Shown piece after piece: positions 18,207 through 33,380 of a DNA stretch of 37,387 bases. The translations under genes were made by a program, and so were the position numbers. Source of the stretch: an uncultured Desulfobacter sp. (GTDB taxonomy: Bacteria > Desulfobacterota > Desulfobacteria > Desulfobacterales > UBA2156); contig CAZSON010000002.1 in NCBI GenBank assembly GCA_964608375.1, positions 1 through 37,387 on the forward strand. Direction: 5' to 3'. The notes below the pieces were generated by a model. That model searched no databases and was not told the origin of the DNA. It worked only from the letters and a program-made list of their open reading frames with translations. Positions within the stretch are counted from its first letter, which is position 1. Every line of letters starts with the position of its first letter.

Positions 18207-18293
18207 ATTCAATATCTTGAGCTATATCCTGACTAACGCGTAATTTGGGCACAACATGATTGGCAACTTTTTTGTGAAAGCTTCAGGGGTAAG

Positions 18294-19769
18294 ATGATAA
18301 CTCAATATGACATCAACTCCCAATTCCTCGCTTTGGATTTCGGAGCTGAAAGCGGGCGCGGTGAACTCATTACACTGTGTGAAAATAAGATTTACATTGA
18401 AGAAATCCATCGTTTTCCCAACAGACCGGTAAATCTCTGCCGAACGCTATGCTGGGATTTCCCTTTTCTTTTTGCGGAATTGCTAACAACCTTGCGAGTG
18501 TGTGCAGATAAAAACCTGTCTTTAACCGGAATTGGCATCAGTACCTGGGGTGTTGATTTTGGTTTGCTGGGAGAAGATGGGAAAATCCTGGCCAATCCGG
18601 TTCATTATCGTGATGCGCGCACAGATAAAATCGATGAATATTCGGACTTAATCATGTCCAAAGATGAGATATTCGCGGCGACAGGGTGTGAACCATGGAA
18701 TATCAGCTCGTTATTTCAATTATTAGCGATGCAGAGAGACCATTCTCCCATCCTGAAAATGGCCTGTTCTTTTTTGAATATGCCCGACCTGTTTAATTAC
18801 TGCTTGACCGGGAAAAAAGTCTCAGAGCGTTCTATCGCAAGTACCTCTAATTTAATGCAAATAGATGGCGATTGGTGTCGGAATATCATTCACCAATTCC
18901 AATTACCCGACATTTTTGAAGAACTGGTTGAACCGGGATCGGTAATTGGCAACATGAGCCCTGAAATCGCCCCCCAGCCAAATATGGCAAATGTTCCGGT
19001 CATTGCAACCTGCAGCCATGACACGGCTGCTGTAGCGGCCGCCGTACCTGCGAGCGGAGACAATTGGGCTTTTTTAAGTTCGGGAACCTGGAGTATTCTG
19101 GGCAGGCTTCGCAGCGAGCCGGTCACGACCCCGGAATTCCTGGAGAACGGATTTAGTAATGAATATACGCTCGGCGGTTGGTTTTTGTGCCGCAATATTA
19201 TAGGTCTTTGGTTGATACAAGAGCTTTACCGCAAGTGGGATACATCAGCCGATCCCTGGAACTACAAGCGGATGATGGAAGAAGCTTCCCAAGCCAAATC
19301 CGGACTCATAATAGATGTTGCCGATAAGTGTTTGCTGGCGCCGGATGATATGGAAGAATCCCTGTTGGATTTAACGCGCCGTTTTCAACAGCATTTACCA
19401 GATTCCCGCGGAGAACTGATCAGGTGTGTACTTGAAAGCCTGGCGCTTGAGTATGCTTATCGCTTGGAATTATTGTGCGCTCTGAGTAAGGAACAAGTGG
19501 ATTCATTATTCCTGGTAGGCGGAGGAATCGCCAATAAACTACTTTGCCAGTTAACGGCCAACGCATGTCAAATACCGGTATACGCCGGAGCACAGCAATG
19601 TACGTCTCTAGGCAATGCCTTAACGCAAGCCTATGCCCTCGGCATAATCAAAGAACCTGGTGAAATTCGCCGCATTATGCGCAATAGTTTTGAACTTACA
19701 GCTTATGAACCGATGGATCCCTCCTTTTGGATTGACAAGCTCTTCAAGTATAAATCCTTGACCATCTAA
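18294..19769 (+). CDS. FGGY-family kinase of the rhamnulokinase (RhaB) subfamily; by context probably L-fuculokinase
   Basis: LALDFGAESGRG, GISTWGVDFGLL, HYRDARTD, ATCSHDTAAVAAAVPA, FLSSGTWSILG and NIIGLWLIQE parallel E. coli RhaB motifs. Confidence 0.85.
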   Translation: MITQYDINSQFLALDFGAESGRGELITLCENKIYIEEIHRFPNRPVNLCRTLCWDFPFLFAELLTTLRVCADKNLSLTGIGISTWGVDFGLLGEDGKILANPVHYRDARTDKIDEYSDLIMSKDEIFAATGCEPWNISSLFQLLAMQRDHSPILKMACSFLNMPDLFNYCLTGKKVSERSIASTSNLMQIDGDWCRNIIHQFQLPDIFEELVEPGSVIGNMSPEIAPQPNMANVPVIATCSHDTAAVAAAVPASGDNWAFLSSGTWSILGRLRSEPVTTPEFLENGFSNEYTLGGWFLCRNIIGLWLIQELYRKWDTSADPWNYKRMMEEASQAKSGLIIDVADKCLLAPDDMEESLLDLTRRFQQHLPDSRGELIRCVLESLALEYAYRLELLCALSKEQVDSLFLVGGGIANKLLCQLTANACQIPVYAGAQQCTSLGNALTQAYALGIIKEPGEIRRIMRNSFELTAYEPMDPSFWIDKLFKYKSLTI

Positions 19770-19798
19770 TATTTTCAGGAGAAGATAAAGCAGAAAAC

Positions 19799-21805
19799 AT
19801 GAACTCGAAAAATCACCGATTGGCAAAAGGCTATATGAATAAAGTCCTTTATGTTAATCTTAGCAGAGAGTCATATCACTCAAAACCGATTGATCTAAAA
19901 ACCGCAGAACTGTTTTTTGGCGGCCGGGGTTTCGGAATCTGTTTTCTTTTTGAGCATTTTAAGAAACTGCAACAAGAAGGCAAATATAAGAATCCTTTTG
20001 CCGAAGTAAACCCGCTTTCACCCGACAATGTGATTGTCATCGCAACCTCACCCGCAACAGGAACCAAGATGCCGACTTCCGGAAGATTTCACATGAATTA
20101 TAAATCTCCCTTAACCGGAGCTTTGGGAAGTACCAATGCCGGAGGGCGATGGGCGGTTGAATTTAAGAAATCCGGTTATGACTTGCTGGTATTGACCGGC
20201 AAGTCTCCAAAGCCGGTCTATCTCGTGATTTCAAGTGCCGGCGTTGAGTTTGTGAAGGCCGATCCTCTCAAAGACCTGACTTCAATCGAAACCAGAACTG
20301 CCATAAAGGAAAATCTTTCCAAGAAAGCGCAAGTTCTGACCATCGGAGCAGGGGGAAAAAACCTGTCCTATTTTGCATCCGTATTGAGCGACAGAGGTAA
20401 AGCTTTTGGAAGGGGCGGGGGTGGTGCTGTTTTTGGATCAAAAAACCTCTATGCCATCGCAGTCCGTCCCGGCCAGGAAATGGCCATCGAAGTTGCCAAC
20501 GAAAAGAATTTAGAGCTTAAAAATAAAAGCGGGGCTTCTTATCAGGCCATGTTAAAACTCAATCTGGGCAAATTCACAAAAAAGGAAGAACATTTCGGAA
20601 TATTGTCTTCCATGGGGTCGTTAGGAATTTTGGGAATGGTCGACAATTTTGATCAACTTGTTCATAACAATATGCGGGATACTGATCATGACCCAGCCGA
20701 CATTAGAAAGATCAACGGTGAAGCCTTGAGAAACCACGCTAAAAACGCAAAACCAGGTGAAACTAGGATTGAGGTCAAGAGGGGTACCTGTTTTAACTGC
20801 CCGATTACATGTAAAAGAGAAACCAGGCTCATAGATGGTCAGGGGAACCTAATCGAGGCTGGCGAAGGGCCGGAATTTGAATCAACAGCGCTGATGGGGG
20901 CCAATTTATCCATATATGATCTGGCAATCATAACCCAGGCCGTTTATCTGGCAAATCATTACGGCCTCGATACCATCTCCCTGGGCGCAACCATCGCCTC
21001 GTTTTTTGAGCTTTATGATGTTATGGCTGAAAAGGCCGAAAATCTTCCACCACTTGAAAAAAAATTTTTAGAGGAAATAGAGGATTTTATTTCGCAATAT
21101 GGAACACCAGGTTTTGGAAAATCTGAATTACTGATTCCATTGGTGCACTTGATCGGCAAAGCGGAGGGAATCGGCAGGCAACTGGCAAAGGGTTCTTATC
21201 GATTCTGTGAACGTTATGGTCATAAAGAACTTTCGATGAGTGTGAAGAAACTGGAGCTGCCGGCCTACGACCCTCGAATGTCATTCAGCCAGGCGTTGTG
21301 TTATGAGATGAATAACCGGGGAGGATGTCATTTGGAAGGCGGTTACACGGCCCCGCATGCTTACTGTGCGGGTTATGCCGAATGGCCTGCCGATAGAATA
21401 GAAGGTACACCCTTGATAGCCAAAAACGCCGCCCTGAAAAACACGACCCTCGATATCATCTGTGCTTGTGCATATGGATCATTCTCATTAAATCTGGATG
21501 AATATGGTGCCTTGATCAGCGCAGTTACCGGACTTGAATACAATTCAGGAACTCTTAAAGAACTCGCCCGTCGGGTTATCACGCTGGAAAAGGTCTTTAA
21601 CATTCTGTGTGGATTGACTCGGGACGATGACTGGCTTCCGGATAGGTTTTATTCGGAAACCATCCGGGCAAAGGACTTTACGGCAATCTGCCGGCGGGAA
21701 GAATTTCAAAAAATGCACCATGAATATTATGATTCCCTCGGGTGGGACAGGAATGGCAAACCGACCGAAAAAACCTTGAAGGAATTGCAATTATTAGAAA
21801 TCTAA
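19799..21805 (+). CDS. Aldehyde:ferredoxin oxidoreductase family (tungstopterin/[4Fe-4S] AOR)
   Basis: MNKVLYVNLS…FFGGRGFG N-terminal AOR domain, GRGGGGAVFGSKNLYAIAV, a Cys motif CFNCPITCKRE, and EGPEFES. Alternative start at ATG 19835 (MNKVLYVNLS). Confidence 0.88.
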   Translation: MNSKNHRLAKGYMNKVLYVNLSRESYHSKPIDLKTAELFFGGRGFGICFLFEHFKKLQQEGKYKNPFAEVNPLSPDNVIVIATSPATGTKMPTSGRFHMNYKSPLTGALGSTNAGGRWAVEFKKSGYDLLVLTGKSPKPVYLVISSAGVEFVKADPLKDLTSIETRTAIKENLSKKAQVLTIGAGGKNLSYFASVLSDRGKAFGRGGGGAVFGSKNLYAIAVRPGQEMAIEVANEKNLELKNKSGASYQAMLKLNLGKFTKKEEHFGILSSMGSLGILGMVDNFDQLVHNNMRDTDHDPADIRKINGEALRNHAKNAKPGETRIEVKRGTCFNCPITCKRETRLIDGQGNLIEAGEGPEFESTALMGANLSIYDLAIITQAVYLANHYGLDTISLGATIASFFELYDVMAEKAENLPPLEKKFLEEIEDFISQYGTPGFGKSELLIPLVHLIGKAEGIGRQLAKGSYRFCERYGHKELSMSVKKLELPAYDPRMSFSQALCYEMNNRGGCHLEGGYTAPHAYCAGYAEWPADRIEGTPLIAKNAALKNTTLDIICACAYGSFSLNLDEYGALISAVTGLEYNSGTLKELARRVITLEKVFNILCGLTRDDDWLPDRFYSETIRAKDFTAICRREEFQKMHHEYYDSLGWDRNGKPTEKTLKELQLLEI

Positions 21806-21812
21806 GAGTCAA

Positions 21813-23237
21813 ATGGAATCAAATAAAAAGATAACTGATAATAAAGATCGTATATTTGAAAGAATACAAAAAATCGGAACGGCGATTTCCTTAGTTAACG
21901 CCAATAATACCCATAGCGGCAATCTTTCCATGCGTGATCCGTCTGATCCTGACTTATTTTATATTACCGCCAGCGGCTCGCAAGGAGGCCGTCTGATCAA
22001 ACATGATATAGTGCCTATACATTTTTCCGGAGTAAGTTGGGGAGATGCACGAGGTTCGACCGAATCAACGATTCATAGAAAGATCTTGAATATTCCAGGA
22101 GTAAATTCTGTAATTCATGCCCATTATATGCATAGCACATTTATCTCATTCGATACCAAAGATAAGCAGTTATTCCTTAGGTTTTTAGGAACCGACAGCC
22201 ATGAAAGAGAAGAATTTCTTTTTTATCCGGTTGATCTGATAGGTGCTTATTCCATTGGAGGCGTCAAGGTTGGAAGTTACGAACAACCGGTAGGATCTTG
22301 CGAGATGGAAGAAAGAATTCCTCAATACTTAGGCGAAAACATCTTAACGATTGTAAGAGGTCACGGTCCGTTTGCCAGGGGTTCTTCACCCGAAAATGCC
22401 TTTCATTACCTGAGTGTTTTAGAAAACAGCTCCATGCTGGCGATATTCCTCCGAAGAAGAGGTGTCGACATCGGTCGAATTCAAAAATCGATCATTGATT
22501 TGGGAAAAGATAAGTTTTTCCCGGTTGATCCCGGTATCTCAGAAATGAACGATTCTCCCAAATTTGAGATCAATGACCCATCTGTGCTGGAGGATTTTCG
22601 TATCAGGCTGAATTATAATTACCGCCAATCCATAGGCGCTTTTGGAACCGGATCAATGAGCCATAAGATCTCTTCAAAGGAGATGATCTTTTGTTCATTG
22701 TCTGCCGTTCCCGAAAACTTCGAGTTTCCTCTATGCCGCACCACCATCAGTTTTCGGGCGGACGATTCATTAGACTTAAGGCTACATAAGCTGATTTATC
22801 AACATACACACCAGAATTCTTGTATGATTACGTCAAGTCCACTGGCAACTGCAGAAGGTATGGCAATTTTGGCAGAGGAATATGGTATGCAAGTATTGTT
22901 AGACATCGAAACTAAAATTCCTTATCTGGCCAAAGACCATCCCGTGGTAAAGCCGATAGACGGCGAAGCTATTTACCTGAATCCCAGAGTAGGACTGGTT
23001 GACATTTCGCAGTTGACCGACATGACACCGGACAACCCGATTCTCAATATGCTCCGCTGGCATAAAGGCTGCTGCATCGTTGCCGGGTATGCCGTCATCT
23101 CAACAGGAGAAGCGACACTGGAACAAGCCGCACACAATGCGGCATCCGCCGAAAGAATAGCCAAGTTTCGTTCCGAAGTCTTTATTAATGAAAAACTGCT
23201 AAAAGGGCCGTCAGTTGAGGTGTTCGAGCCGCTGTAA
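21813..23237 (+). CDS. Tandem class II aldolase/adducin-domain protein (N-terminal domain FucA-like and intact, C-terminal domain degenerate)
   Basis: N-domain: HSGNLSMRD, STESTIHRKI, SVIHAHYMHS and VRGHGPFARG (Glu plus 3 His zinc/catalytic pattern). C-domain repeats the fold pattern (GTGSMSHKIS, DLRLHKLIY, CCIVAGYAVISTGEATLEQAAHNAASAERIAKF), but the His ligands are replaced (SCMITSSP, VAGYAV). Confidence 0.8.
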   Translation: MESNKKITDNKDRIFERIQKIGTAISLVNANNTHSGNLSMRDPSDPDLFYITASGSQGGRLIKHDIVPIHFSGVSWGDARGSTESTIHRKILNIPGVNSVIHAHYMHSTFISFDTKDKQLFLRFLGTDSHEREEFLFYPVDLIGAYSIGGVKVGSYEQPVGSCEMEERIPQYLGENILTIVRGHGPFARGSSPENAFHYLSVLENSSMLAIFLRRRGVDIGRIQKSIIDLGKDKFFPVDPGISEMNDSPKFEINDPSVLEDFRIRLNYNYRQSIGAFGTGSMSHKISSKEMIFCSLSAVPENFEFPLCRTTISFRADDSLDLRLHKLIYQHTHQNSCMITSSPLATAEGMAILAEEYGMQVLLDIETKIPYLAKDHPVVKPIDGEAIYLNPRVGLVDISQLTDMTPDNPILNMLRWHKGCCIVAGYAVISTGEATLEQAAHNAASAERIAKFRSEVFINEKLLKGPSVEVFEPL

Positions 23238-23281
23238 TCAATAGTCAGTGAAAGAGGTCTTGATAAACTGCAGCAATCTGA

Positions 23282-24049
23282 TTATGCATCATTACCCCCG
23301 GTTAAAATCGATTTTACACTTTTTAGAATCTTTTCTTTTGCAGCATTACCGTATGCAAGATTTGCGTCCTTAGCACTGCGCGAATACCATTTATCATCTT
23401 TATACTTATCCATATTAACACCTTCCGGGCAGAACGCCATCATGAGAGACATCTCCTGCTTACCGGTGTGATCGATAGGAAACTCCTTTTGAATTTCAAC
23501 ATCAAGCAATGGATGCAAACGAATCCAACTAAACGGGTCTGTTTGAGCTTTATGATCTGAATAATAATTTTCCATGTCATCTCGACCCCACCAATCTTCA
23601 CCGCGTTCTTTTTCTAAAAAGTCAAAAGTTGCTTGTCTGGCGGCCAACTTGAAAGCCAGATCTGTAGGCATACCGGAAATGAAGTTTTCACTTTGATGAT
23701 GAATAAAACAGTGAATATTCTGGAAACCGGTGCGAAGCAGGCTGGAAAACAGATGACGACCAAAAGTATTTAAGACTTCTGAGGTAACATGGATAGAGCC
23801 TTTGCCACCTTCTGGAGATTCAACGACATAACTAGCTGCACCATAATAAAATGGTGGCAAAATAATCATATCAATCTCTTTTTCCAAAAGCGCCATAGTT
23901 TTGACAACCAATAGCGTATCAACACCCATTACCGAATGCTCGCCGTGGTACTCCAGTACACCAAGTGGTAAAACAACCGGCCAATGATCCTTTATTGCTT
24001 TTCGGATTTGATCAGGAAACATTAATTCAAACCGCATATAATACTCCAT
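23282..24049 (-). CDS. Creatininase-family amidohydrolase
   Basis: LPLGVLEYHGEHSVMGVDTLL (E-x-H…D metal motif), IHHQSEN, and HTGKQEMSLMMAFCPEGV match the creatininase fold family. Confidence 0.75.
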   Translation of the reverse strand: MEYYMRFELMFPDQIRKAIKDHWPVVLPLGVLEYHGEHSVMGVDTLLVVKTMALLEKEIDMIILPPFYYGAASYVVESPEGGKGSIHVTSEVLNTFGRHLFSSLLRTGFQNIHCFIHHQSENFISGMPTDLAFKLAARQATFDFLEKERGEDWWGRDDMENYYSDHKAQTDPFSWIRLHPLLDVEIQKEFPIDHTGKQEMSLMMAFCPEGVNMDKYKDDKWYSRSAKDANLAYGNAAKEKILKSVKSILTGGNDA

Positions 24050-25213
24050 TTATAAAATTTCGATTAATTCTGTTTTGTATTTTGACAGCATGTCACATCC
24101 ATCTTCTGTCACATGGATGCCGTTTTCCCAGCGTAACCCGAAATTAGCGGCTGCTAAAAACGTGTCCACCTGAAATGTCATATTGGGAACAAATCTATAT
24201 TCTGAATTTGACTCTACCCACGGTTCTTCAACTTCCATCATACCCAGACCGTGTGCCGGACCATAAAGATAATTGTCACTGCAACCTTGAGCGACAATAA
24301 ATTTGTAAAACTTATCAACAACCTCTTTTGCAACGACTCCGTTTATGAGCCATTCGTATGTTTTAAAATGCGCTTCCAGACCAATTTCAAGAAGTTTCCG
24401 CATCTCGTCAGTTGCCTTACCCATTACAATTGGCCTGCCGATACTTGGAGAATATCCATCGATACGGGCACCGAGGTTTATCTGAACCATATCGCCTTGC
24501 TGAATCACCCGATCTGTTGCACGCCCGATCGCGTTGTTACTGTTTGCGCCGGAAAGAACATAAACAGGATGCGCTTCATATTCGCCACCAAACTCATAAA
24601 TATACTTTTGGATATGACCCACAATTTGGGTCTCGGTCATACCGGGTTTGATGAATGGTATTACCTGTTCAAAAACCTTTTCCGATATTTCAAAAGCTTC
24701 TTTCAGAATCTCAATCTCTGCCGGACTTTTAATTTGTCTTAACTCAGAAACAAGTTTCGAGTGAAAAATCTCAGCATTCGGAAAAGCGTTGATGATCGCT
24801 TGATAAATCGGAACCGGCAGGATGGCTAAACCACATATTCCTATTTTTTTAAATTTTGCAAGGCCACCGGAATTTTCGGCAATACTTTCAAAAGTATCCA
24901 GCTCAATACCTGGATAGGCGGGTTCAGCCGACTCTCTATACTCAAGCATCTTGGCAATGTTTTTAATCTTGCTTCGACCCTCGGCAAATGTTTCAGATTC
25001 GGGCCCGATAATCAAAGTCGGTTTACCTTCTTTCGGGATAAAAATACCCCCTGTTTCAAATAGTGGCCAATAGTTGCTGAAATATCGTACATTAGCAAAA
25101 TCAGCTTCATGACTGTGTGCGATAATGGCATCAATACCATCTGCAGCCATTTTTTTTTGAGCCGCTGCAATTCTTGCCTGATACTCGGTGTTTGAAATTT
25201 TTTTCATTGTCAT
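24050..25213 (-). CDS. M24 pita-bread-fold protein with creatinase/prolidase N-domain; canonical dinuclear metal ligands partly lost
   Basis: 387 aa aligned from memory to M24B prolidases. GDMVQINLGARIDGYSPSIGRP replaces GDxxxIDxG…Y.SDITR (both Asp ligands become Asn and Ser). AHGLGMMEVEEP keeps the His. FQVDT replaces TIEPG. LRWENG keeps the last Glu. Confidence 0.75.
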   Translation of the reverse strand: MTMKKISNTEYQARIAAAQKKMAADGIDAIIAHSHEADFANVRYFSNYWPLFETGGIFIPKEGKPTLIIGPESETFAEGRSKIKNIAKMLEYRESAEPAYPGIELDTFESIAENSGGLAKFKKIGICGLAILPVPIYQAIINAFPNAEIFHSKLVSELRQIKSPAEIEILKEAFEISEKVFEQVIPFIKPGMTETQIVGHIQKYIYEFGGEYEAHPVYVLSGANSNNAIGRATDRVIQQGDMVQINLGARIDGYSPSIGRPIVMGKATDEMRKLLEIGLEAHFKTYEWLINGVVAKEVVDKFYKFIVAQGCSDNYLYGPAHGLGMMEVEEPWVESNSEYRFVPNMTFQVDTFLAAANFGLRWENGIHVTEDGCDMLSKYKTELIEIL

Positions 25214-25262
25214 TCATCCTTACTTTAAGATTTGTTTAGTTTCTCTTGGGAAATGGGTCGTT

Positions 25263-26765
25263 TCAATCGCTCTCCTTTTCGCCCCGGGGCCGGCTGAGCA
25301 GGTGCCGGGTTGAATTATAGAGCTCCCGGTACCTCGCATACCCTTCATCATAAATCGCTTTGGATGTTTCACTCGGGGTGATCTCTGCTTCCATGCGCAC
25401 CCACCGGCTTATCTCATTGATACTGTTGAAATAATTGCTTCCTACAGCTGCCAGGAATGCATCACCGTAACAGGCGCCCAGCTTCTGCCGGGCAAGGTTT
25501 TGCGGGCATCCGGTGATATCTGTGATTATCTGCATCAATTGGCGGCTTGCGGAGGCTCCTCCGGTTGCCAGAATTCGGTCGGCCTGGGCGCCTGCTTTTT
25601 CCATCTCCTCAATATTATGCCGGATTCCGTAACCGACAGCTTCCTGAAGAGAACGGTATAAATCTCCCGCAGTGCTGGAAAGAGACATTCCGAAGAATAC
25701 CCCCTTGGCAGCGGGATCGTGCAGTGGGGTTCTTTCTCCGGCAAAATAAGGTAAGGTAGTGATGCCTCCTGCACCGGGAGGAGATTTCATTGCCAGGTTT
25801 TCCCATTGCGCAACACGCCTACCGGGAAAGGTTTCCCCCAACCATTTAAACATACTCCCTACGGTGGACATGCCTCCTGTCAGAACGAAGGAGCCGGGCT
25901 CCAGAAAATTTGACGCCCAGAATGAGCGGACCGGCTGCAGGTTTTCAGTTTTTAAGATAAAGAAGTTGCTGCTGCCGTACATCATCATCATGTCGCCTGT
26001 TTTTTCCACTCCTGCAGCAAGCGCCTCCGAAGCCGCATCGGTTGTGCCGGTTACGACAGGCACTCCAGGCGGTAAGCCTGTCAGTTCCGCCGCCTTTTGG
26101 GTAAGTTCCCCGGCGACCTGAGTGCTCCATAAGAGCTCGGAAAGTTTTTCCATCTCCGTAATGAAACCGGCAAGGGATTGGTCCCAGGTTCTTTTTTCTA
26201 AATCGAAGATCGGGGCATATCCAATGGCACTATAGATATCCAGCGTGTATCTACCGGTAAGTTTGTAAACCAGGTACCCGGAGGCCGTCAGAATCTTTGA
26301 GGTTTTTTGCCAAACCTCCGGTTCGTTTTTCCGTATCCATAGGATTTTCGGACAACATGATTGGGAGGAGAGATCCTGTCCTGTTTTAGCAAAAATTGCC
26401 TCGCGACCGAGCTTTTCTTCAATCTCCCGAACCTCCTTCTCTGCCCGCGTATCGATTCCGTAAAGAATCCCGGGACGTAGCGGCTTTCCCCCTTTATCTA
26501 AAGGCAGTACACAGGGGCCGATGGTACTTACGGCCAGCCCTTTGATCGCTTCTTTGGAATATGGCAGATTGCTCAACAGCTTTCGGCACAGCAACTGGAA
26601 GTCCCCCCACCAGATCCGGTCCGCATCCTGCTCATACCATCCCGGCTGAGGCATTGACATCTTATGAGGAACGGATGCCTGACAGAGCACATTTCCTTCA
26701 ACATCAACAACGGTCGCTTTGGATGAACCGGTCCCGATATCTACCCCTAGAAAACATTCGTTCAT
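25263..26765 (-). CDS. FGGY-family carbohydrate kinase (xylulokinase/gluconokinase-like), substrate unknown
   Basis: FLGVDIGTGSSKATVVD, TGTTDAASEALAAG, and ATGGASASRQLMQIITDITG motifs of FGGY N- and C-domains. Confidence 0.85.
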   Translation of the reverse strand: MNECFLGVDIGTGSSKATVVDVEGNVLCQASVPHKMSMPQPGWYEQDADRIWWGDFQLLCRKLLSNLPYSKEAIKGLAVSTIGPCVLPLDKGGKPLRPGILYGIDTRAEKEVREIEEKLGREAIFAKTGQDLSSQSCCPKILWIRKNEPEVWQKTSKILTASGYLVYKLTGRYTLDIYSAIGYAPIFDLEKRTWDQSLAGFITEMEKLSELLWSTQVAGELTQKAAELTGLPPGVPVVTGTTDAASEALAAGVEKTGDMMMMYGSSNFFILKTENLQPVRSFWASNFLEPGSFVLTGGMSTVGSMFKWLGETFPGRRVAQWENLAMKSPPGAGGITTLPYFAGERTPLHDPAAKGVFFGMSLSSTAGDLYRSLQEAVGYGIRHNIEEMEKAGAQADRILATGGASASRQLMQIITDITGCPQNLARQKLGACYGDAFLAAVGSNYFNSINEISRWVRMEAEITPSETSKAIYDEGYARYRELYNSTRHLLSRPRGEKESD

Positions 26766-26780
26766 TTTTTTCCATTTTTT

Positions 26781-27848
26781 TTATAGAAGGATTTTTCCAC
26801 GCTGAAGAATCGGATCACCATCAAGAAGAACGCAACCTTCGTTGCGGATATCCTTTACAATATCCCAGTGTACTGGAGATTGATTCGTTCCGCCGCATTC
26901 CGGATAAGCTCTTCCCAAGGCGATGTGAATTGTTCCACCGATCTTCTCGTCGATGAGGATGTCATTGCAGAATCTATCAAGCATGAAATTTGTACCAAAG
27001 GCAAATTCCCCGGGAAGGGATGCCCCTTTAACTCGACCTATTATCGACTGAAAAAACTCCTTTTCCGTAGATGCGCAAGCATCTGTTAATTCTCCATTTT
27101 CCCAGGTAAGTCGAATGTCCCGGATAAGCCTGCCTCCAAGAATACCCGGGCGCTCGAAGGTGATCGTTCCATTTACGGTTTCAATTACAGGGGCGGTTGC
27201 TATCTCCCCGTCCGGCATGTTGATTTTTCCTGCGAATGAAATCCACTTGCGTCCCTCTACTGAAAAAGAGAGATCTGTATTCTCTCCGGTAATCCGTATT
27301 TGCTTGCCTTTATTCAGCCGGTCACACCAGACGTTCCACTTTTCCGCCTCCTTTTCCCAGCTCAGAAAGCAGGAATTAAAGAACATGTCTGTGATGGTCT
27401 CCTCGTCGGTTTTCGCCTGCTGGGCGAAGGCACTGTTGGGAACTCTAACCAGGCACCAGCGGGTTTTCGCCCATCTTTTTTGAGATACAACTCCCATGGC
27501 TGCCTGGTTGGCTGCAAGTTTCTCTGCGGGGATATCCTGGAGTTCAAATAGATTGTGGGCACCCCTTAGACCAATGTAGACATCCGCCCATTCCATACCC
27601 CAAATCTCCATTTCAGGAATCCATTCTATCTGTTCCCGGTTTCCGTGTTTCAAAACAGAGCGGCGGAGGGTTTCTGAACGAAACTGAACCTGCGGAAAAG
27701 CTCCGACCTTGATTGCCGCCAAGTACACACCTTTTGCCAACGGATAGGTTTCAGGCTCAACCATAGCTATCATAACGCGATCCCCAGGTACAACCCGGGT
27801 GGAGTAGTTAACCAGGATCTCTCCCAGTTTTTCCCAGCGTTTATCCAT
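26781..27848 (-). CDS. M29-family aminopeptidase (AmpS/PepS-like)
   Basis: MDKRWEKLGEILVNYSTRVVPGDRVMI N-terminus, …GEFAFGTN…DEKIGGTIHIALG C-terminal motif, and 355 aa length. Confidence 0.7.
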   Translation of the reverse strand: MDKRWEKLGEILVNYSTRVVPGDRVMIAMVEPETYPLAKGVYLAAIKVGAFPQVQFRSETLRRSVLKHGNREQIEWIPEMEIWGMEWADVYIGLRGAHNLFELQDIPAEKLAANQAAMGVVSQKRWAKTRWCLVRVPNSAFAQQAKTDEETITDMFFNSCFLSWEKEAEKWNVWCDRLNKGKQIRITGENTDLSFSVEGRKWISFAGKINMPDGEIATAPVIETVNGTITFERPGILGGRLIRDIRLTWENGELTDACASTEKEFFQSIIGRVKGASLPGEFAFGTNFMLDRFCNDILIDEKIGGTIHIALGRAYPECGGTNQSPVHWDIVKDIRNEGCVLLDGDPILQRGKILL

Positions 27849-28656
27849 CTTCCTTCCTCATGCGACGGACAATATCCATAAAGGCTGTTACTCTGGATTG
27901 ATCTACTTCATTATTGAAGACGCCGTCCCGCTTGAAGGTAGTAGCGGTTACGGTTCCGTCAGCAATGAAAAGCTGTTCCTTTATGTTTAATAGACTTACG
28001 CCGGTATTAGCGAAAACTGGTGTATCAGGTACAGCATCCTTCACCTTTTTCAAAGTTGAGGAATCTGTCTCAGACCCCGCGGTAAGTCCGGAAACACAAA
28101 GTGCGTCCGGTTTGTTGTTGAATACTGTAGAACGGGCAATGTCAGCAACATCCCGCTGTCCCAGATAGGAAGCTGCTTCAGGAACAATATTAAACATGAG
28201 TTTTATATCTTCACCACCGATGCGATGCTGATGCCGGATAACTTCGCCGCAGTTGGTGTTCCAGAGACCAAAATCACTCGCATAAACACCGGTGAAAATC
28301 TCCCGGACAAAGAGAGCATCAGTTGCAACCGCCAGATCGATAGAGGCCTTTGGATCCCAGAGGACGTTTACTCCAAAGGGTATTCTTATATCATGTTTCA
28401 GTTCGCCGATTATCCTGGCCATCGTTGTACAGGTTACCGGTTCCACATCAGTCAGGTAAGGGAGACTGAACTCGTTTGAAAACATAACACCATCGATTCC
28501 CCCATTTTGAAGAGCAATCAGATCTTTTCTGGCCAGATCCAGCACCCATCCAATCCCCTTGTCTCTTTTATATCCTGGATCTCCCGGAAGGGCCTGAAGA
28601 TGGCACATGGCGATTATCGGTTTTTTTACTTGAAATACCTCTTTCAGCCAACTCAT
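27841..28656 (-). CDS. BtpA/SgcQ-family TIM-barrel protein
   Basis: KPIIAMCHLQALPGDPGY N-terminal motif, DGVMFSNEF, and 271 aa length. AGGAG SD lies 5 nt upstream of the ATG at 28656. Confidence 0.75.
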   Translation of the reverse strand: MSWLKEVFQVKKPIIAMCHLQALPGDPGYKRDKGIGWVLDLARKDLIALQNGGIDGVMFSNEFSLPYLTDVEPVTCTTMARIIGELKHDIRIPFGVNVLWDPKASIDLAVATDALFVREIFTGVYASDFGLWNTNCGEVIRHQHRIGGEDIKLMFNIVPEAASYLGQRDVADIARSTVFNNKPDALCVSGLTAGSETDSSTLKKVKDAVPDTPVFANTGVSLLNIKEQLFIADGTVTATTFKRDGVFNNEVDQSRVTAFMDIVRRMRKEDG

Positions 28657-29108
28657 TTTTTCTCCTTGGTTGTGAGATTACGTTCCTACCCCTGTTATCC
28701 AGTATGGTATATTTGGTGGATCCTGTCGAACCCCTAGACCGCCGGTAAGCATAATATACTTTTTGAAACGAAGATTGTCAAAAGTTATCCAAGTGATTTC
28801 TCGTACCAGAAACCCCTAGTGTTTGCGTATACGTCGATCAGAGGGGATGTATTCGGAAAAGAATAATAATCATATCTCATTTTTTGGTTGACAAACTTGT
28901 CTGGCTAAATTAATTCTTTTAAAAGAATCGATCTGTATTAACTGTAAAAACGAAGTGTTATTGCTTTAACAGTGAATCGATATTTGCAGACATTCTTAAG
29001 GCAATGGGGAGAGAAGAAGCGCGTTAAATCTTTTTTTTCACGAAAGGTACCAATCTGCGTAACATCTGTTGGACTGTTATGGAATGTAACAATTAAAAGG
29101 AGGATTTC

Positions 29109-30764
29109 ATGATGAATGAAAAAAAGATCACTCGGCGAAGATTTATTAAGGATTCAGCAATTGCCGCAGCAGGAGTAAGCGCTCTTGCCGTGGGAACAAC
29201 CAGTGGACTGAGCCTGCTCACTCGGGAAGCCCATGCTCAGAGCAACCTGAGGACTGAAATCCTGAAAATCCCCGGGGTCGGGAAGGGTTCCCCTACCGAC
29301 TCAGACTGGCAGAAAGTTGGTGCAATGTGCTTGGGGTCCACAAAGGACAGTGTGTCTAAAGGTGAATTCAAGGGCGTAAAACTTACCTTTATGGGGCTCA
29401 ATAATCAAAACCTGCATAATTTTTTGTTTCGCGGTTTCCTGAAGCCCTGGGAGGCTTACACAGGTGCTAAAATAGACTGGATCGATCTTGCTCAGGCCGA
29501 TTACAACGCACGACTACAACAAGCAATTGCTACAGAAACGGTTGACTTCGACATCATTGAAATGGGCGCCCCGTTTGAAGGCGATGTGTGTGGAAAGGGG
29601 CTAGCCTCTGAGATGCCGGGTTGGGTCAAGCAGCAGATCCAGATGGATGATTATGTCGCTTATTTGAAAGCCCCTGTCGGGACCTGGAACGGCAAGACTT
29701 ATCGTATCTCAATCGACGGTGATTGCCATAACTTTAACTATCGTACCGACTATTTTTCTGATACGGGTTTGGCCAAAGCCTGGAAAACCGAAGGCCACGA
29801 GGGCGAATGGGAGGTTCCCAAAACCTGGCAGAAGGTTCAGGAAGTGACCAAGTTTCTGCACGGGAAGAAATTTCAAGGCATGGATGCATATGGATATCTC
29901 GATCCTGCGAAGGGCTGGGGTGGGTTCGGTTTTTACTTTTTGGAAAGCCGTGCCACCGCTTACGCGAAACACCCCGATGACAAAGCATGGCTATTCGATG
30001 CGGATACGATGAAGCCCCGGGTCAATAATCCGGCCTGGGTTCGAGCGATTCAGGATGTGATCGACGCCCTGCCCTATGAACCCCCCAATCAACTGAATGC
30101 CGATCCGGGCACTACAGCCTTCCAGCAGTTTCTGGCAGGCACCGGTTCGATGGTATCCTGGTGGGGAGATGTCGGATCCATGTGCAAGACCAGTGATTCC
30201 TCTGTTGTCGGAGATGTAACCGGGTTCTCCATCTTGCCTGGTTCAGATGATGTTTACAATTCAAAGACCGGTAAATGGGAGAAGCTCCCAAGCGGTCCAA
30301 ACTTTGCACCGAACATGGCCTACATCGGTTGGGGTGTTTACGTAATGGCAAGGGTTGACGGCGATTCGAAAAAACGCAAGGCCGCCTGGAGTGCTGCAGC
30401 CCATATTGGTGGTAAAGACATATCTCTTTGGACTGCTGCATACCCATCCGGTTTCCAGCCCTACCGTCAGAGTCACTTCAATATATCCGAGTGGGTCGCG
30501 GCCGGTTACGATAAGCCATTTATCACCTCCTATCTGAAGTCTGAAGCTGACTCATACAACCATTCCAATGCGGCGATTGAACCTCGCATCCCGGGAATTT
30601 TCCAGTACTACAGTACGGCAGAGGATGAACTGGCCCAGATATTCGCCGGTAAATACTCGGCTCAGGAAGGCGCTGACAGGATTGCGGCGGCGTGGGAGAA
30701 GCTCACCGATCAAATCGGCAGGGAAAAACAGATCAAGCTGTATAAAGCTTCGCTTGGATTATAA
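29109..30764 (+). CDS. ABC transporter substrate-binding protein (family 1, CUT1-like), unusually long (551 aa), Tat signal
   Basis: Twin-arginine signal KKITRRRFIKDSAIAAAGVSALAVG…AHAQ and a solute-binding fold pattern. AAGGAGG SD is upstream, followed by two CUT1 permease genes. Confidence 0.8.
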   Translation: MMNEKKITRRRFIKDSAIAAAGVSALAVGTTSGLSLLTREAHAQSNLRTEILKIPGVGKGSPTDSDWQKVGAMCLGSTKDSVSKGEFKGVKLTFMGLNNQNLHNFLFRGFLKPWEAYTGAKIDWIDLAQADYNARLQQAIATETVDFDIIEMGAPFEGDVCGKGLASEMPGWVKQQIQMDDYVAYLKAPVGTWNGKTYRISIDGDCHNFNYRTDYFSDTGLAKAWKTEGHEGEWEVPKTWQKVQEVTKFLHGKKFQGMDAYGYLDPAKGWGGFGFYFLESRATAYAKHPDDKAWLFDADTMKPRVNNPAWVRAIQDVIDALPYEPPNQLNADPGTTAFQQFLAGTGSMVSWWGDVGSMCKTSDSSVVGDVTGFSILPGSDDVYNSKTGKWEKLPSGPNFAPNMAYIGWGVYVMARVDGDSKKRKAAWSAAAHIGGKDISLWTAAYPSGFQPYRQSHFNISEWVAAGYDKPFITSYLKSEADSYNHSNAAIEPRIPGIFQYYSTAEDELAQIFAGKYSAQEGADRIAAAWEKLTDQIGREKQIKLYKASLGL

Positions 30765-30774
30765 TAAAATTAAT

Positions 30775-30814
30775 AACAATCGGCTGACGGAAATTACACC
30801 GTCAGCTGATTGTT
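30775..30814 (+). terminator. Strong intercistronic stem-loop after the binding-protein gene (partial terminator or mRNA stabiliser)
   Basis: AACAATCGGCTGACGG (30775-30790), loop AAATTACA, then CCGTCAGCTGATTGTT (30799-30814). This gives a 16-bp stem with one G:U pair, followed by a weak U-run (ATCTTTG). Confidence 0.55.
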
Positions 30815-31012
30815 ATCTTTGATCATCTTCGATCGCTTTTAGTTTGTCACATTTCAGGGATGGGTTGTTGGAGTCAAAGCGCTCCAATCTCTTCAGCTTT
30901 TATTTCACTGTAGACATTCAGCGTATCGATTCAAAAAGATGGATCTTTTGCCCGATCACCGCCCGCCTAACGTACTTACAAGAAGTGATTTCAAATATAG
31001 GACCAGGTTTTA

Positions 31013-32137
31013 ATGGCTAGTTCGTCAGTGCTGGATGGTCAAAAGCATTACAAAGTTGGTATCGAGGATATTTCCGTAAGTCGGAAGAGACTCGGACGGG
31101 GAATGATTTTTCTTGCCTCTCTCATTCTGGCGGTGGTTATTTTTCTTCAAATCCTGTACAAAACTGAGGCCATCACAGTAGGTTTTGATACCTGGCGCGC
31201 AATTCTTTATGCATATCTTCTTTGGGCGGTTGCCCTGGTTATTGGACAGGTGCTTATCAGAGGAGAGCTTGGCAAACGAAGCCTGTTTTTGCTGCCCGCT
31301 CTTTTATTTACTATTTCGCTGGTGATCTTTCCAACTTTTTTCGGACTGTATATATCGTTTACAGACTGGAATCTTAGTTCTTTTGAAGGCCGCCATTTCA
31401 ACGGCTTAGACAATGTTCGGGAACTCATTCAGGATACCTACTACTGGAACGCGCTAAAGAATACAGTCTATTACATTGCAACGGTGGCAGTGGAATTTGT
31501 TATTGCCTTTTCTTTAGCGTTGTTAATAAATACCCGTATCCGTGCCCGCAAGTTTTTTCGCATTGCTTTTTTGATGCCTTTCATGTTAAGTCCTGTTGCT
31601 GTCAGCTGGATGATTGGCAAGTCACTAATGGAATATCGTTTTGGCCCGGCCGCTAGTTTCGCGCGTTTTCTTGGGTGGGACACACCGGCCTTCTTCTCTA
31701 CTCCATGGCTGGCTCGATTCAGTATCGAAGTGATGGATGGATGGATGTTTATCCCATTTATGATGATCCTCCTGCTGGCAGGTCTGCAAGCCATTCCAAA
31801 GGATATTCTGGAAGCCGCCAAAATGGATGGGGCCAATGCCAGGCAGTCATTTTTAAAGGTAGTATTTCCGTTAATGGTTCCTGTTAGCATTACGGTTATA
31901 ATTCTAAGGATCATTTTCAAGTTGAAACTCGCAGATATTGTGATCAACGTGACAGCAGGAGGGCCAGGAGGGGCGACTGACACCGTCACGAGTTACATCT
32001 ACCGCGTCTATCGGGAGCGATCCAATGTTGGGTATGGCACCATGCTCGCCGAAATTTATTTAATTCTTATTATCATTTTGATGTTGACCTTATTAAGCCT
32101 GATAAACCGCTGGAGAAAAAAACGCCAGCTAGCGTAA
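31013..32137 (+). CDS. ABC sugar transporter permease (MalF/UgpA-like, extended N-terminus)
   Basis: Multiple TM helices and an EAA-loop region EAAKMDGANARQSFLKVVFPLM. The true start may be the internal Met (MIFLASL…). Confidence 0.85.
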   Translation: MASSSVLDGQKHYKVGIEDISVSRKRLGRGMIFLASLILAVVIFLQILYKTEAITVGFDTWRAILYAYLLWAVALVIGQVLIRGELGKRSLFLLPALLFTISLVIFPTFFGLYISFTDWNLSSFEGRHFNGLDNVRELIQDTYYWNALKNTVYYIATVAVEFVIAFSLALLINTRIRARKFFRIAFLMPFMLSPVAVSWMIGKSLMEYRFGPAASFARFLGWDTPAFFSTPWLARFSIEVMDGWMFIPFMMILLLAGLQAIPKDILEAAKMDGANARQSFLKVVFPLMVPVSITVIILRIIFKLKLADIVINVTAGGPGGATDTVTSYIYRVYRERSNVGYGTMLAEIYLILIIILMLTLLSLINRWRKKRQLA

Positions 32138-32177
32138 CCGGTCATTTTGTCAATCAAATTATGAATGGAGCTCTTAA

Positions 32178-33101
32178 TTGGCCTCTTCTATTATCAGGAG
32201 TCATTTCTATGACCGTGAAATAAACCGGCGGTTCAACGTCCTTTTGATCCGTATTTTCATATATTTTGGATTGCTCTTCTGGGCATTCATCTGTCTCTTT
32301 CCCGTTTACTGGACAATAACGACGACCTTTAAGGCAGCAGTCAACGTTACACAGGGCCATTTGATCCCCTGGGTTGACTTCGAACCAAAATGGATTGGAT
32401 TGCGTTCACTTGGCCTTTCGCCGGATACGATTTTTGAAATCTCAACCGTCCGGAATGAGTTCCTCAAGCGGCTTTCAAACAGCGTCATTGCTTCAATTGG
32501 CGCTTCTACCCTGGCCGTTTTGATCGGATCCCTGGCCGCATATGGCCTCACGCGTTTCCAATACAAGTTCGGCTTCTTTAAAAACAAGGATATTTCATTT
32601 TTCTTCCTGTCTCAATTGATCTTACCACCTGTTGTTTTGGCACTGCCATTTCTGGTTCTTTACAAGGAATTAGCCTTGCTTGACACCAAGGTGGGGCTCA
32701 TCCTGTTATACACACTCATGGTGTTGCCTATTGTTATCTGGATCATGCAAGATCAATTCAGCACCATCCCGATCGAGCTGGAAGAGGCGGCATTTATAGA
32801 TGGTTTATCGGTTTGGGGTGTTTTCCTGCGAATTGTAACGCCGCTCTCATTTCCCGGAATGGTAGCCTCCTTCATCCTTTGCTTCGTGCTCAGCTGGAAC
32901 GAATACTTTTTTGCCGCTTTATTGACCAGCACCAGCGCGAAAACCTTACCGGTTATGGTCGCCAGCCAAACAGGATCCCAGGGAATCAGTTGGTGGTCCA
33001 TGGCGGCGCTTTCCGGTATGGCCATTCTCCCCCTGGCGCTGATCGGACTCTTTCTTGAAAGCTACATCGTCAAAGGGCTGACCGCAGGGTCGGGGAAATA
33101 A
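32178..33101 (+). CDS. ABC sugar transporter permease (MalG/UgpE-like)
   Basis: EAA loop EEAAFIDGLSVWGVFLRIVTPL and 6 predicted TM segments. TTG start has a GGAG SD 7 nt upstream. Confidence 0.85.
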   Translation: MASSIIRSHFYDREINRRFNVLLIRIFIYFGLLFWAFICLFPVYWTITTTFKAAVNVTQGHLIPWVDFEPKWIGLRSLGLSPDTIFEISTVRNEFLKRLSNSVIASIGASTLAVLIGSLAAYGLTRFQYKFGFFKNKDISFFFLSQLILPPVVLALPFLVLYKELALLDTKVGLILLYTLMVLPIVIWIMQDQFSTIPIELEEAAFIDGLSVWGVFLRIVTPLSFPGMVASFILCFVLSWNEYFFAALLTSTSAKTLPVMVASQTGSQGISWWSMAALSGMAILPLALIGLFLESYIVKGLTAGSGK

Positions 33102-33120
33102 ACCCAAAAAAGGAGTTCCC

Positions 33121-33213
33121 ATGGGCCAATTACCGTACTGGATAGGCAATTTCCCTTTTCCGCCTGATAAAAAGAAGCCAATTGTTATCAGCCGATCTCA
33201 AACGTGGACTTGA
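33121..33213 (+). CDS. Possible 30-aa small ORF or decayed gene start
   Basis: ATG at 33121 is preceded by AAAGGAG (AGGAG at 33111-33115, 5-nt spacer). It translates to MGQLPYWIGNFPFPPDKKKPIVISRSQTWT, with no recognisable family. Confidence 0.2.
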   Translation: MGQLPYWIGNFPFPPDKKKPIVISRSQTWT

Positions 33214-33380
33214 CAAAGTTCCGGAAAACTGGTTGCACCAGATTCAAAAGATCTGTTAGGTTGATTCGATGGTCTGCTACAAATGCTGGGGAAAAATGAG
33301 ATCGGTACCTGCATTTTTAAAACAATGATCTGATCCGGATTGAGACCGGCGAAAAGGGGAGCGAATAGAAGAGGTTGGGT

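Follow-up and report, generated by a model that had tools for sequence, protein, structure and literature searches.

A BtpA-M29-FGGY gene trio related to the Escherichia coli sgc operon, joined to an M24-creatininase pair in a Desulfobacterales genome

Which compound would call for a BtpA-family barrel, an M29 aminopeptidase-like protein, an FGGY sugar kinase, a creatinase-like M24 protein and a creatininase-like protein, all encoded in one tight row? The question is raised by five minus-strand open reading frames (ORFs) at positions 23282 to 28656 of contig CAZSON010000002.1, from an uncultured Desulfobacter sp. of the Desulfobacterales (assembly GCA_964608375.1). The window analyzed here is the stretch of that contig from position 1 to position 37,387, 37,387 nucleotides in all. 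The BtpA family (PF03437) contains thousands of sequences, including a cyanobacterial photosystem I biogenesis factor. An earlier interpretation, made from the letters of the window without database searches (the sequence-only reading), regarded the five genes as a candidate for an undescribed catabolic system.

Comparisons with other genomes reveal two modules. Module A, which consists of the BtpA, M29 and FGGY genes and is also called the core here, is a widespread sugar-processing trio and the ATP-binding cassette (ABC)/kinase counterpart of the orphan sgc operon of Escherichia coli. Module B, the M24 and creatininase-fold genes, is an accessory pair that occurs alone in glycan-related loci of spirochaetes. 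Because the pair is found without the core and the core without the pair, the five-gene operon is a junction of two independent modules. The best explanation, to which we give about an even chance, is a composite catabolic operon for a small, possibly N-substituted sugar derivative, assembled from two modules that each exist on their own.

Distribution and layout of the five genes

A scan of one genome per species detected M29 relatives in 227 species. Eighty loci were retrieved and searched by tblastn with all window proteins. Co-occurrence was counted in the 54 species-level loci that had at least 3.5 kb of flanking sequence on both sides, with BtpA on the same strand and within 4.5 kb of M29. 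BtpA is beside M29 in 52 of the 54 loci (96%) and FGGY in 44 (81%). The corresponding counts are 3 (6%) for M24 and 4 (7%) for creatininase, and these two genes accompany the core only in close Desulfobacterales relatives. The core itself is present in Desulfobacterales, Spirochaetota, Chloroflexota, Acidobacteriota, Atribacterota, Halanaerobiales and a cyanobacterial bin. Identities across phyla are 66-80% for BtpA, 61-72% for M29 and 40-63% for FGGY, and by these values the conservation of BtpA and M29 is unusually high. The adjacency of BtpA, M29 and FGGY exceeds chance, since it recurs in dozens of species.

The genomes nearest to the window in the M29 scan were a Desulfobacterales metagenome-assembled genome (MAG; HyVt-363), the Olavius Delta 1 symbiont and a Desulfosarcina MAG. 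Among the relatives (loci are designated by L numbers), all five genes are present in L003, L005 and L009. L008 has the creatininase gene without M24, and L007 lacks both. In L004 the M29 gene is followed by a truncated creatininase gene, and FGGY and M24 are missing. The counts and the gene contents of the relatives together indicate that the conserved unit is the BtpA-M29-FGGY trio, not the quintet. The neighborhood analysis that the sequence-only reading had suggested thus gave a divided answer: the trio recurs across phyla and the five families do occur together in three loci, but M24 and creatininase are confined to Desulfobacterales, and the claim that the five genes form one conserved system did not hold.

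Module B has its own distribution. The M24 gene has 1,873 homologous proteins at E<1e-20 counted as orthologs, those of Spirochaetota being 65-69% identical. On two spirochaete contigs the M24 ortholog is directly followed by a creatininase-fold gene whose product is 59% identical to that of the window, and no BtpA, M29 or FGGY gene was found within 9 kb of these pairs. Their neighbors are LacI regulators, a gene of the URO-D family (uroporphyrinogen decarboxylase/methyltransferase-like) and GH123-like genes. More distant M24 orthologs are paired with a Polysacc_deac_1 (CE4) deacetylase gene amid glycoside hydrolases. As judged from identities of 69% and 59% to Spirochaetota genes, M24 and creatininase are an orthologous pair that is independent of the core.

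The five ORFs were located exactly where the sequence-only reading had placed them (Table 1), and they are as tightly packed as it described. The 8-nt overlap of BtpA and M29, which is retained in relatives, and the 15-nt gap between M29 and FGGY were both reproduced. The conserved overlap suggests translational coupling of the two genes and perhaps a complex of their products. As annotated, a 49-nt gap then separates FGGY from M24, and the M24 stop codon abuts the creatininase ATG. These last two spacings change with the start codons. The creatininase-fold gene most likely starts at its second ATG (24037), which has GGAG 6 nt upstream and agrees with the N-terminus of the spirochaete ortholog and with the gene as called on the identical contig L001 (251 aa). 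For M24 the most likely start is Met3 (25207), a residue that is invariant in the subfamily and lies 9 nt downstream of AAGGA. The resulting protein of 385 aa is also the one called on L001. With the creatininase start at 24037, the M24 stop and the next start are 12 nt apart rather than abutting, and with the M24 start at 25207 the FGGY/M24 gap becomes 55 nt. The packing remains tight.

These data bear on the possibility that the M24-creatininase pair is an unrelated passenger, which came to lie downstream of the trio in a mosaic island by chance and acts on another substrate, as in the spirochaete glycan loci. Relatives with 80-95% identity in their shared genes differ in whether they have the pair, and the G+C content of the pair at third codon positions (GC3) is distinct (0.37 for M24 and 0.35 for creatininase, as opposed to 0.43-0.55 for BtpA, M29 and FGGY). 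The independent pairs of Spirochaetota and the distant pairing of M24 with Polysacc_deac_1 point the same way. So does the mosaic structure of the island, where fucose-type genes are inserted variably between the operon and a MalK gene: a fucose-type operon separates MalK from the five genes in the window, only the kinase is found there in L007 and L008, and there is no such gene in L005. On the other side, the pair has the same orientation as the trio, the corrected gaps are short, and there is no terminator-like site at the FGGY/M24 junction. Four species-level genomes keep the arrangement. The creatininase gene of the Desulfosarcina MAG (L005) is directly followed, on the same strand, by the MalK ortholog (88% identity), so that the pair sits between the core and transporter genes. 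A Caldilineaceae locus (L040) has independently recruited two other peptidase-family genes, of families M81 and M19, to a core with an SBP551-like importer (SBP551 is listed in Table 1). A fortuitous association is considered unlikely.

Table 1. Coordinates of the five genes, the divergent importer, the MalK-type ATPase and the candidate promoter in the window.
Feature	Position	Strand	Remarks
Creatininase-fold metal amidohydrolase, not a creatininase ortholog	23282-24049	-	255 aa; accessory module B; likely true start 24037
Creatinase_N + M24 pita-bread protein, metal site remodeled	24050-25213	-	387 aa; accessory module B; likely true start 25207
FGGY-family sugar kinase, xylulokinase-like, no XylB equivalog	25263-26765	-	500 aa; core module A
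M29-fold binuclear metalloenzyme (aminopeptidase-like)	26781-27848	-	355 aa; core module A
BtpA/SgcQ-family (beta-alpha)8 barrel, E. coli SgcQ ortholog	27841-28656	-	271 aa; first gene of the operon; core module A
Candidate sigma-70-type promoter	28753-28781	-	TTGACA-17-TATATT, 11/12 matches; upstream of BtpA in the 452-bp divergent intergenic region
Putative solute-binding protein SBP551, twin-arginine-like signal peptide	29109-30764	+	551 aa; divergent from the operon
ABC importer permease, MalF/UgpA-like	31013-32137	+	BPD_transp_1 53.6 bits; best NCBIfam UgpA, MalF
ABC importer permease, MalG/GlcU-like	32178-33101	+	BPD_transp_1 59 bits; best NCBIfam GlcU, MalG
MalK-type ABC ATPase	14930-16027	-	ABC_tran, OB_MalK and TOBE_2 domains

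Folds and active sites

Profile searches confirmed all five Pfam families assigned by the sequence-only reading, well above gathering scores. The first gene encodes a protein that matches Pfam BtpA at 307 bits and TIGR00259 (BtpA/SgcQ) at 329 bits (cutoff 153). An ungapped alignment to E. coli SgcQ covers the full length (268 aa) at 69% identity, and the protein is therefore an SgcQ ortholog. The model for the cyanobacterial photosystem I biogenesis BtpA (NF045918) gives 152.7 bits, below its cutoff of 400, and the host is a Desulfobacterales bacterium. A PDB sequence search with BtpA found no relative. Its AlphaFold model is a (beta-alpha)8 barrel (pLDDT 86.7, pTM 0.88). The nearest solved folds are all phosphate-binding barrels, namely HisF, GGGPS/PcrB, TrpA, KDPGal aldolase, RPE and PriA, with template modeling (TM) scores of only 0.5-0.6 and identities of 12-18%. 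The protein is modeled as a phosphate-binding TIM barrel without a close solved relative. Its loops S189-G190, N217-T218-G219 and D233-G234 are invariant and are candidate phosphate sites. No paper on BtpA-family enzymology or on a BtpA/M29/FGGY pathway was found in a literature search, in line with the earlier statement that the family has no established enzymology.

The BtpA family is a compact one: its 190 representatives at E<1e-30 are almost all single-domain proteins. Longer proteins are chimeric calls of adjacent genes (DeoR, FGGY_C, HAD) or have unannotated extensions. Chimeric calls with DeoR, FGGY_C or HAD fragments are seen among cluster representatives P0243, P0294 and P0316. One apparent FGGY-BtpA fusion, a 702-aa call at 7580-9951 of L085 in a long-read metagenome assembly, was considered as Rosetta-stone evidence and rejected as a frameshift artifact. 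The natural C-terminus of FGGY is a TGA at L085 9113-9115 in another frame, and the same gene holds a second frameshift. No FGGY-BtpA fusion occurs among the top 150 BtpA representatives.

The M29 protein matches Peptidase_M29 (PF02073) at 182.6 bits (cutoff 27) and has more than 5,500 homologs at E<1e-10. No NCBIfam model matched it, and annotated plasmids contained no close ortholog (identity at most 36%). Its model superimposes on the M29 aminopeptidases PepS, AmpS and AmpT with TM scores of 0.86, 0.83 and 0.81. Counted from the printed alignment, E215, E281, E301 and H308 align with Glu253, Glu319, Glu343 and His348 of AmpS, which belong to its metal-ligand and catalytic residues. The motif H327-x-D329, which lies outside the aligned region, probably corresponds to the last ligand motif of AmpS, His381-x-Asp383. 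All six residues are invariant in 15 orthologs. These features suggest that the five metal ligands and the catalytic Glu are conserved and that the binuclear metal site is intact. Fold, Pfam family, metal ligands and catalytic residues are thus common to the window protein and AmpS, PepS and AmpT. They differ in that the window protein is only 18-23% identical to them, matches the AmpS profile at only 77 bits, is about 55 residues shorter (355 as opposed to 408-418 aa) and forms, with its orthologs, a tight subfamily firmly linked to BtpA and FGGY genes. After these aminopeptidases, the closest structural relatives are non-peptidases, namely the NicX dioxygenase and crocagin CgnB/CgnE. Since such non-peptidases share the M29 fold, a non-hydrolytic role of the window protein is possible.

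The kinase contains FGGY_N (180 bits) and FGGY_C (119 bits). It scores below both xylulokinase XylB models, with 310 bits for TIGR01312 (cutoff 380) and 181 bits for NF011601 (cutoff 912). Its best PDB match is 3IFR, an uncharacterized structural-genomics kinase (257 bits), followed by xylulokinases.

The M24 protein contains Peptidase_M24 (119 bits) and Creatinase_N (40.7 bits) domains. Its closest PDB matches are prolidases. Relative to the ligands of prolidase 3Q6D, two Asp residues are replaced by N246 and S257, a Glu is replaced by D350, H321 and E363 are kept, and a second-shell His is replaced by V328. S257, H321, V328, D350 and E363 are invariant in 19 orthologs from many phyla, and this conserved pattern indicates a remodeled site rather than decay. 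The ligand set of M24B Xaa-Pro peptidases (Asp, Asp, His, Glu, Glu) is not present, and the PepQ model NF040821 gives 103 bits against a cutoff of 630. Since the two Asp ligands are lost, the protein is not a canonical peptidase. The subfamily with this remodeled site (loci L091-L094) is widespread, and its pairing with creatininase-fold or CE4 deacetylase genes suggests an uncharacterized non-peptidase M24 enzyme of glycan degradation.

The state of these sites also bears on the idea that the three proteins of peptidase families serve ordinary peptide trimming and lie beside sugar genes by chance, as has sometimes been held for YpdE/YpdF and FrvX in E. coli phosphotransferase system (PTS) clusters. 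Several E. coli peptidase genes are indeed located in sugar PTS clusters, YpdE and YpdF have peptidase activity in vitro, and the window M29 protein keeps an aminopeptidase-type active site. Unlike housekeeping peptidases, this M29 protein is tied to BtpA in nearly all of the loci counted, across phyla. The M24 protein lacks two metal ligands, and no peptide transporter of the Opp/Dpp type recurs next to the core in the neighbor surveys. Chance proximity of peptide-trimming enzymes is very improbable.

The creatininase-fold protein matches Pfam Creatininase at 91.5 bits. It is far below the cutoff of each equivalog model, including TIGR04448 for creatininase (69 bits, cutoff 235), IolN (45 bits, cutoff 245) and MftE. 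The match to Pseudomonas putida creatininase (1J2T) is only 35 bits, but most catalytic and metal residues are kept, with equivalents of E34, H36, D45, H120, H178 and E183 present.

The classical route from creatinine through creatine to sarcosine and urea would use a creatininase and a creatinase. The window pair has both folds in common with it, the Pfam names Creatininase and Creatinase_N/M24 recall it, and the genes adjoin each other and are conserved together. Neither protein is an ortholog, however. The creatininase scores given above are too low for orthology, there is no creatinase among the 72 PDB matches of the M24 protein at E<1e-5, its nearest solved relatives being prolidases, and the pair is found elsewhere in glycan-related contexts. 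A check of the annotated window ORFs revealed no gene for sarcosine oxidation. At the level of orthology creatinine degradation is excluded, and as an explanation of the operon it is scarcely credible.

The sequence-only reading had counted three amide-bond hydrolases in the operon. This stands for the M29 protein insofar as its metal site is kept. It does not stand in the same way for the M24 protein, which has lost two Asp ligands, or for the creatininase-fold protein, which is so distant from a real creatininase.

Genomic contexts and a proposed pathway

The neighbors of the core in other bacteria were surveyed by clustering the ORFs of 86 loci and annotating the representatives, and Pfam-annotated contigs were also used. 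A CUT2 monosaccharide importer is near the core in 30-40 loci, a DeoR regulator in 26, Dak1 and Dak2 in 19 and 18, and CUT1 permeases in 13-14. Less frequent neighbors are a beta-hydroxyacid dehydrogenase (12 loci), an RPE-like epimerase (11), a ureidoglycolate-lyase-like cupin (9) and a RuBisCO-like protein (7). The RuBisCO-like protein, cupin, DhaK/L, dehydrogenase, second kinase and RPE partners are all below NCBIfam equivalog cutoffs. The core-linked CUT2 binding proteins match PDB entries 5BRA (242-324 bits) and 9I1M (169-192 bits). The latter is AauA of enterohemorrhagic E. coli, a high-affinity D-ribulose binder, so that of the two matches D-ribulose is tied to the weaker. On one Anaerolineae contig the importer, FGGY, BtpA, Dak1/2, M29, RuBisCO-like protein and cupin genes form a single same-strand array. 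The context of the core elsewhere is one of pentulose/triose-type sugar genes, without a peptide signature.

Two sets of neighbors were noted in addition. The RuBisCO-like gene follows M29 in seven Chloroflexota loci (including L084 10001-12702, where Cupin_2 follows it in turn, and L034 10001-12276), and its product is nearest to the MtnW/YkrW type (196 bits, cutoff 409). Together with FGGY and Dak kinases, a RuBisCO-like protein would fit a bisphosphorylated ketose intermediate. Genes of the URO-D family recur by the core in about six loci, including L086 (1166-6875) and L087, where CN_hydrolase and formyltransferase genes accompany them. A URO-D-family gene also adjoins the spirochaete M24-creatininase pair at L091 7608-8813.

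BtpA proteins outside the trio provide further contexts. On megaplasmids of Sinorhizobium and Phyllobacterium, the last gene of one operon encodes an SgcQ-type BtpA (64-66% identity). The other products of this operon are a sugar-phosphate isomerase, a Gfo/Idh/MocA oxidoreductase, a PIG-L deacetylase and an alpha/beta hydrolase, and the genes for DeoR and a CUT1 importer diverge from it. A BtpA paralog clade (about 45% identity) in Thermus, Brucella, Shinella and Labrenzia occurs with DeoR, FGGY, a short-chain dehydrogenase/reductase (SDR) and a CUT1 importer, and with no hydrolase. The cultured anaerobe Leptolinea tardivitalis YMTK-2 (L054, NZ_BBYA01000010.1, 9986-14728) has M29, DeoR, a BtpA paralog (44% identity) and a 533-aa Amidohydro_3 protein but no kinase.

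In Rhizobium leguminosarum (L097, plasmid pRLN4, NZ_CP025016.1, 5726-11289), the genes for two isochorismatase-family hydrolases and the allophanate hydrolase AtzF are followed immediately, on the same strand, by those for a BtpA paralog and FGGY. These hydrolase genes correspond to the characterized TrtA-BiuH-AtzF triuret/biuret genes (PMC7948467). A CUT1 importer of the "sugar" type is located upstream at L097, and 64 Rhizobium plasmid records contain this BtpA paralog. There are hints that the natural substrate of this operon may be a sugar-ureide rather than free biuret.

The association of BtpA with an FGGY kinase, DeoR and a sugar importer extends across the family. Having a metallohydrolase partner is specific to the SgcQ-type clade: each of the three contexts sampled has one, and the fold differs every time (M29, M42 in SgcX, and PIG-L). 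A rule that BtpA always occurs with a C-N hydrolase was considered and rejected, given the paralog contexts and the neighbor scan described next; it holds only for the three SgcQ-type contexts.

The strongest rival of the composite-operon explanation is a plain sugar or polyol pathway in which no conjugate takes part. The M29 metal center would then perform non-hydrolytic sugar chemistry, for example aldose-ketose isomerization as in xylose isomerase, module A would be an isomerase-kinase-epimerase/aldolase triad for a ketopentose-like rare sugar, and M24 and creatininase would be uninvolved. Several observations favor this rival and weigh against the explanation preferred here. In other phyla the neighbors of the core are purely of carbohydrate type: CUT2 importers with binding proteins that match AauA and 5BRA, Dak together with ribulokinase-like and xylulokinase-like kinases, RPE-like epimerases, beta-hydroxyacid dehydrogenases, DeoR and LacI. 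C-N hydrolysis is not needed in such a setting. A bulk Pfam scan of 266 further neighbors gave no consistently recurring C-N hydrolase, only sporadic amidohydrolases. Four of five contexts of the BtpA paralog clade, with its SDR, FGGY and ABC importer genes, are without a hydrolase. Module B is absent from 50 of the 54 loci and is dispensable in close relatives; it may simply be a neighbor. The M29 fold includes non-peptidases such as the NicX dioxygenase and CgnB/CgnE, so hydrolysis by the M29 protein is not assured. In contrast, the invariance of the five metal ligands and the catalytic Glu is a hydrolase signature. The three SgcQ-type contexts have three different metallohydrolase folds in the same role, a pattern for which a common requirement for hydrolysis is an easier explanation than isomerases that converged, and we know of no sugar isomerase of the M29 or M42 fold. 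A plain rare-sugar pathway is on balance rather unlikely.

For the composite operon, gene order, family and fold assignments, the conservation or remodeling of active sites, SgcQ orthology and co-occurrence are the observations from which we infer a substrate and each chemical step. In one Desulfobacterales clade, both modules would be under one putative promoter, divergent from a CUT1-type importer and with MalK nearby. A conjugated or N-substituted sugar would be imported. Module B, the M29 enzyme or both would then hydrolyze off the non-sugar substituent, and the FGGY kinase would phosphorylate the freed ketose- or pentulose-like sugar. The BtpA barrel would bind the sugar phosphate and isomerize, epimerize or cleave it toward central metabolism. 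The CUT1 importer and the M24-creatininase pair may extend module A to a larger or differently substituted compound. The sugar-amine, sugar-amino-acid or glycated-peptide substrate suggested by the sequence-only reading is possible.

A bolder generalization is offered tentatively, and we regard it as rather unlikely. SgcQ-type BtpA barrels would be a new sugar-phosphate-converting class, acting with an interchangeable exopeptidase-fold metallohydrolase (M29, M42 or PIG-L) and a kinase or PTS. The pathway would be widespread and hitherto undescribed, and its substrates would be small conjugates with an N-linked sugar, for example glycosylamines or amino-sugars bearing an aminoacyl, acyl or carbamoyl group. 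The Desulfobacterales operon would be an extended form with two further amidohydrolases for a larger conjugate. If true, this would provide the first enzymology for the BtpA family and deorphanize the E. coli sgc operon.

The findings place an SgcQ ortholog in a conserved trio with an aminopeptidase-fold enzyme and a sugar kinase in many phyla. Comparators with interchangeable parts (M29, M42 or PIG-L; PTS, or ABC importer and kinase) make the problem experimentally approachable. Candidate substrate classes are ketopentose-like sugars and their N-substituted derivatives, and cultured, tractable hosts are available in E. coli, Sinorhizobium fredii, Rhizobium leguminosarum, Thermus thermophilus and Leptolinea tardivitalis. 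The operon also draws attention to a new M24 subfamily with a conserved remodeled metal site, which is paired with creatininase-fold or CE4 deacetylase genes in glycan-degradation loci.

The importer genes lie on the plus strand, divergent from the operon as first described, and comprise two MalF/MalG-type permeases. The MalK-type ATPase on the far side of the fucose-type operon likely energizes them, and its ortholog also flanks the island in L004, L007 and L008. The first importer gene encodes SBP551, which has the N-terminus MMNEKKITRRRFIKDSAIAAAG. Pfam and PDB searches with SBP551 gave no match. The protein is 30% identical to a Caldilineaceae protein of L040, which is itself a weak SBP_bac_1/8 match (37-38 bits). 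Position and signal peptide fit a binding protein, the link to family 1 of these proteins being a weak one through the L040 relative only. SBP551 is 90-93% identical across seven Desulfobacterales loci, in each of which its gene and the permease genes diverge from BtpA. The protein seems to represent a very divergent branch among binding proteins of the CUT1 type.

The sigma-70-like site upstream of BtpA, with 11 of 12 matches, is the best in 19000-37387. Overall counts of promoters and terminators equal the shuffled-sequence expectation, so the site is a candidate promoter only. It is spanned by an 11-nt imperfect inverted repeat (28756-28766 and 28778-28788). An Rfam scan of the window gave zero matches.

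Several flanking features were recorded. A plus-strand operon at 16365-23237 is convergent with the five genes. Its products are a 613-aa protein of the L-fucose isomerase family, a 491-aa FGGY kinase, a 668-aa aldehyde:ferredoxin oxidoreductase of the tungsten type and a 474-aa class II aldolase, the last with 245 C-terminal residues for which Pfam and PDB searches gave no match. The gene set resembles an anaerobic pathway for a 6-deoxyhexose (fucose-type), where the oxidoreductase would oxidize the lactaldehyde product. Downstream of the permeases, at 33375-34421 (plus strand), is a gene for a DUF362 protein with a twin-arginine signal. Its GC content of 0.56 and GC3 of 0.67 are far above those of its neighbors. 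The gene was not detected next to the permeases in relatives and is therefore probably not part of the system. Short overlapping ORFs at 34482-34934 contain an HsdM_N fragment on the minus strand and a weak HipA_C fragment on the plus strand, which look like restriction-modification and toxin gene remnants at the edge of the island. A 594-aa ORF at 35503-37287 (minus strand) has no Pfam family.

Comparison with known systems

The sequence-only reading knew of no characterized pathway with this composition, and that view was borne out: no database match assigned the orthologs to a characterized pathway, and every NCBIfam equivalog score was far below its cutoff. Some known systems resemble parts of the operon. 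The Lsr system for autoinducer-2 (LsrACDB, LsrK, LsrF, LsrG and LsrR) has a logic like that of the core in other phyla, with a CUT2 importer, an FGGY kinase, a TIM barrel acting on the phosphorylated product and a repressor that senses a sugar phosphate, and LsrB and LsrK appear as weaker matches. The two systems are not orthologous. The LsrK model NF008187 gives 166 bits against a cutoff of 528, and LsrB matches at 65-87 bits, well under 5BRA and AauA. BtpA is not an LsrF barrel, which is of the DeoC/FbaB type, and the core has no LsrG.

Polyol and pentulose operons, with a dehydrogenase, an FGGY pentulokinase and a phosphosugar epimerase, resemble the BtpA paralog clade with its SDR, FGGY, DeoR and sugar ABC importer genes. 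The likeness extends to the xylulokinase-like window kinase and to RPE among the structural neighbors of BtpA. BtpA is nevertheless outside the epimerase and aldolase families of these pathways (RPE, AraD-type class II aldolase and AP-endonuclease-2 TIM barrels), and the pathways have no aminopeptidase-fold enzyme.

The closest counterpart is the sgc operon of E. coli K-12 (sgcXBCQAER, on the KpLE2 island), a sugar cluster of the y-ome. It was explicitly reported as uncharacterized in July 2026, and thus remained an orphan despite a dedicated transcriptomic and knockout study, in which mutants deleted for sgc grew without defect on 190 carbon sources and nitrogen-containing poor carbon sources induced the operon (PMC13343008). 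The sequence-only reading had named sgc as a parallel, and with 69% identity between the barrels the parallel is much stronger than was guessed. The SgcQ-type BtpA barrel is common to both, and each cluster combines it with a binuclear exopeptidase-fold protein and a means of sugar phosphorylation. In other phyla the genes around the core mirror sgc further, DeoR being the counterpart of SgcR and the RPE-like epimerase that of SgcE. These neighbors are only 24-26% identical to SgcR and SgcE, and neither family is present in the window.

The differences lie in the parts around the barrel. Uptake and phosphorylation are carried out by a PTS in sgc and are assigned to a CUT1 ABC importer and an FGGY kinase in the window, where a scan of the ORFs found no PTS domains. 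The exopeptidase-fold partner is M42 (SgcX) in sgc and M29 in the window, with no detectable similarity between the two (best E 1.9). The sgc operon is without M24 and creatininase genes. The window is thus an sgc-like cluster in which ABC import and an FGGY kinase replace the PTS, an M29 protein replaces M42, and the M24-creatininase pair is added.

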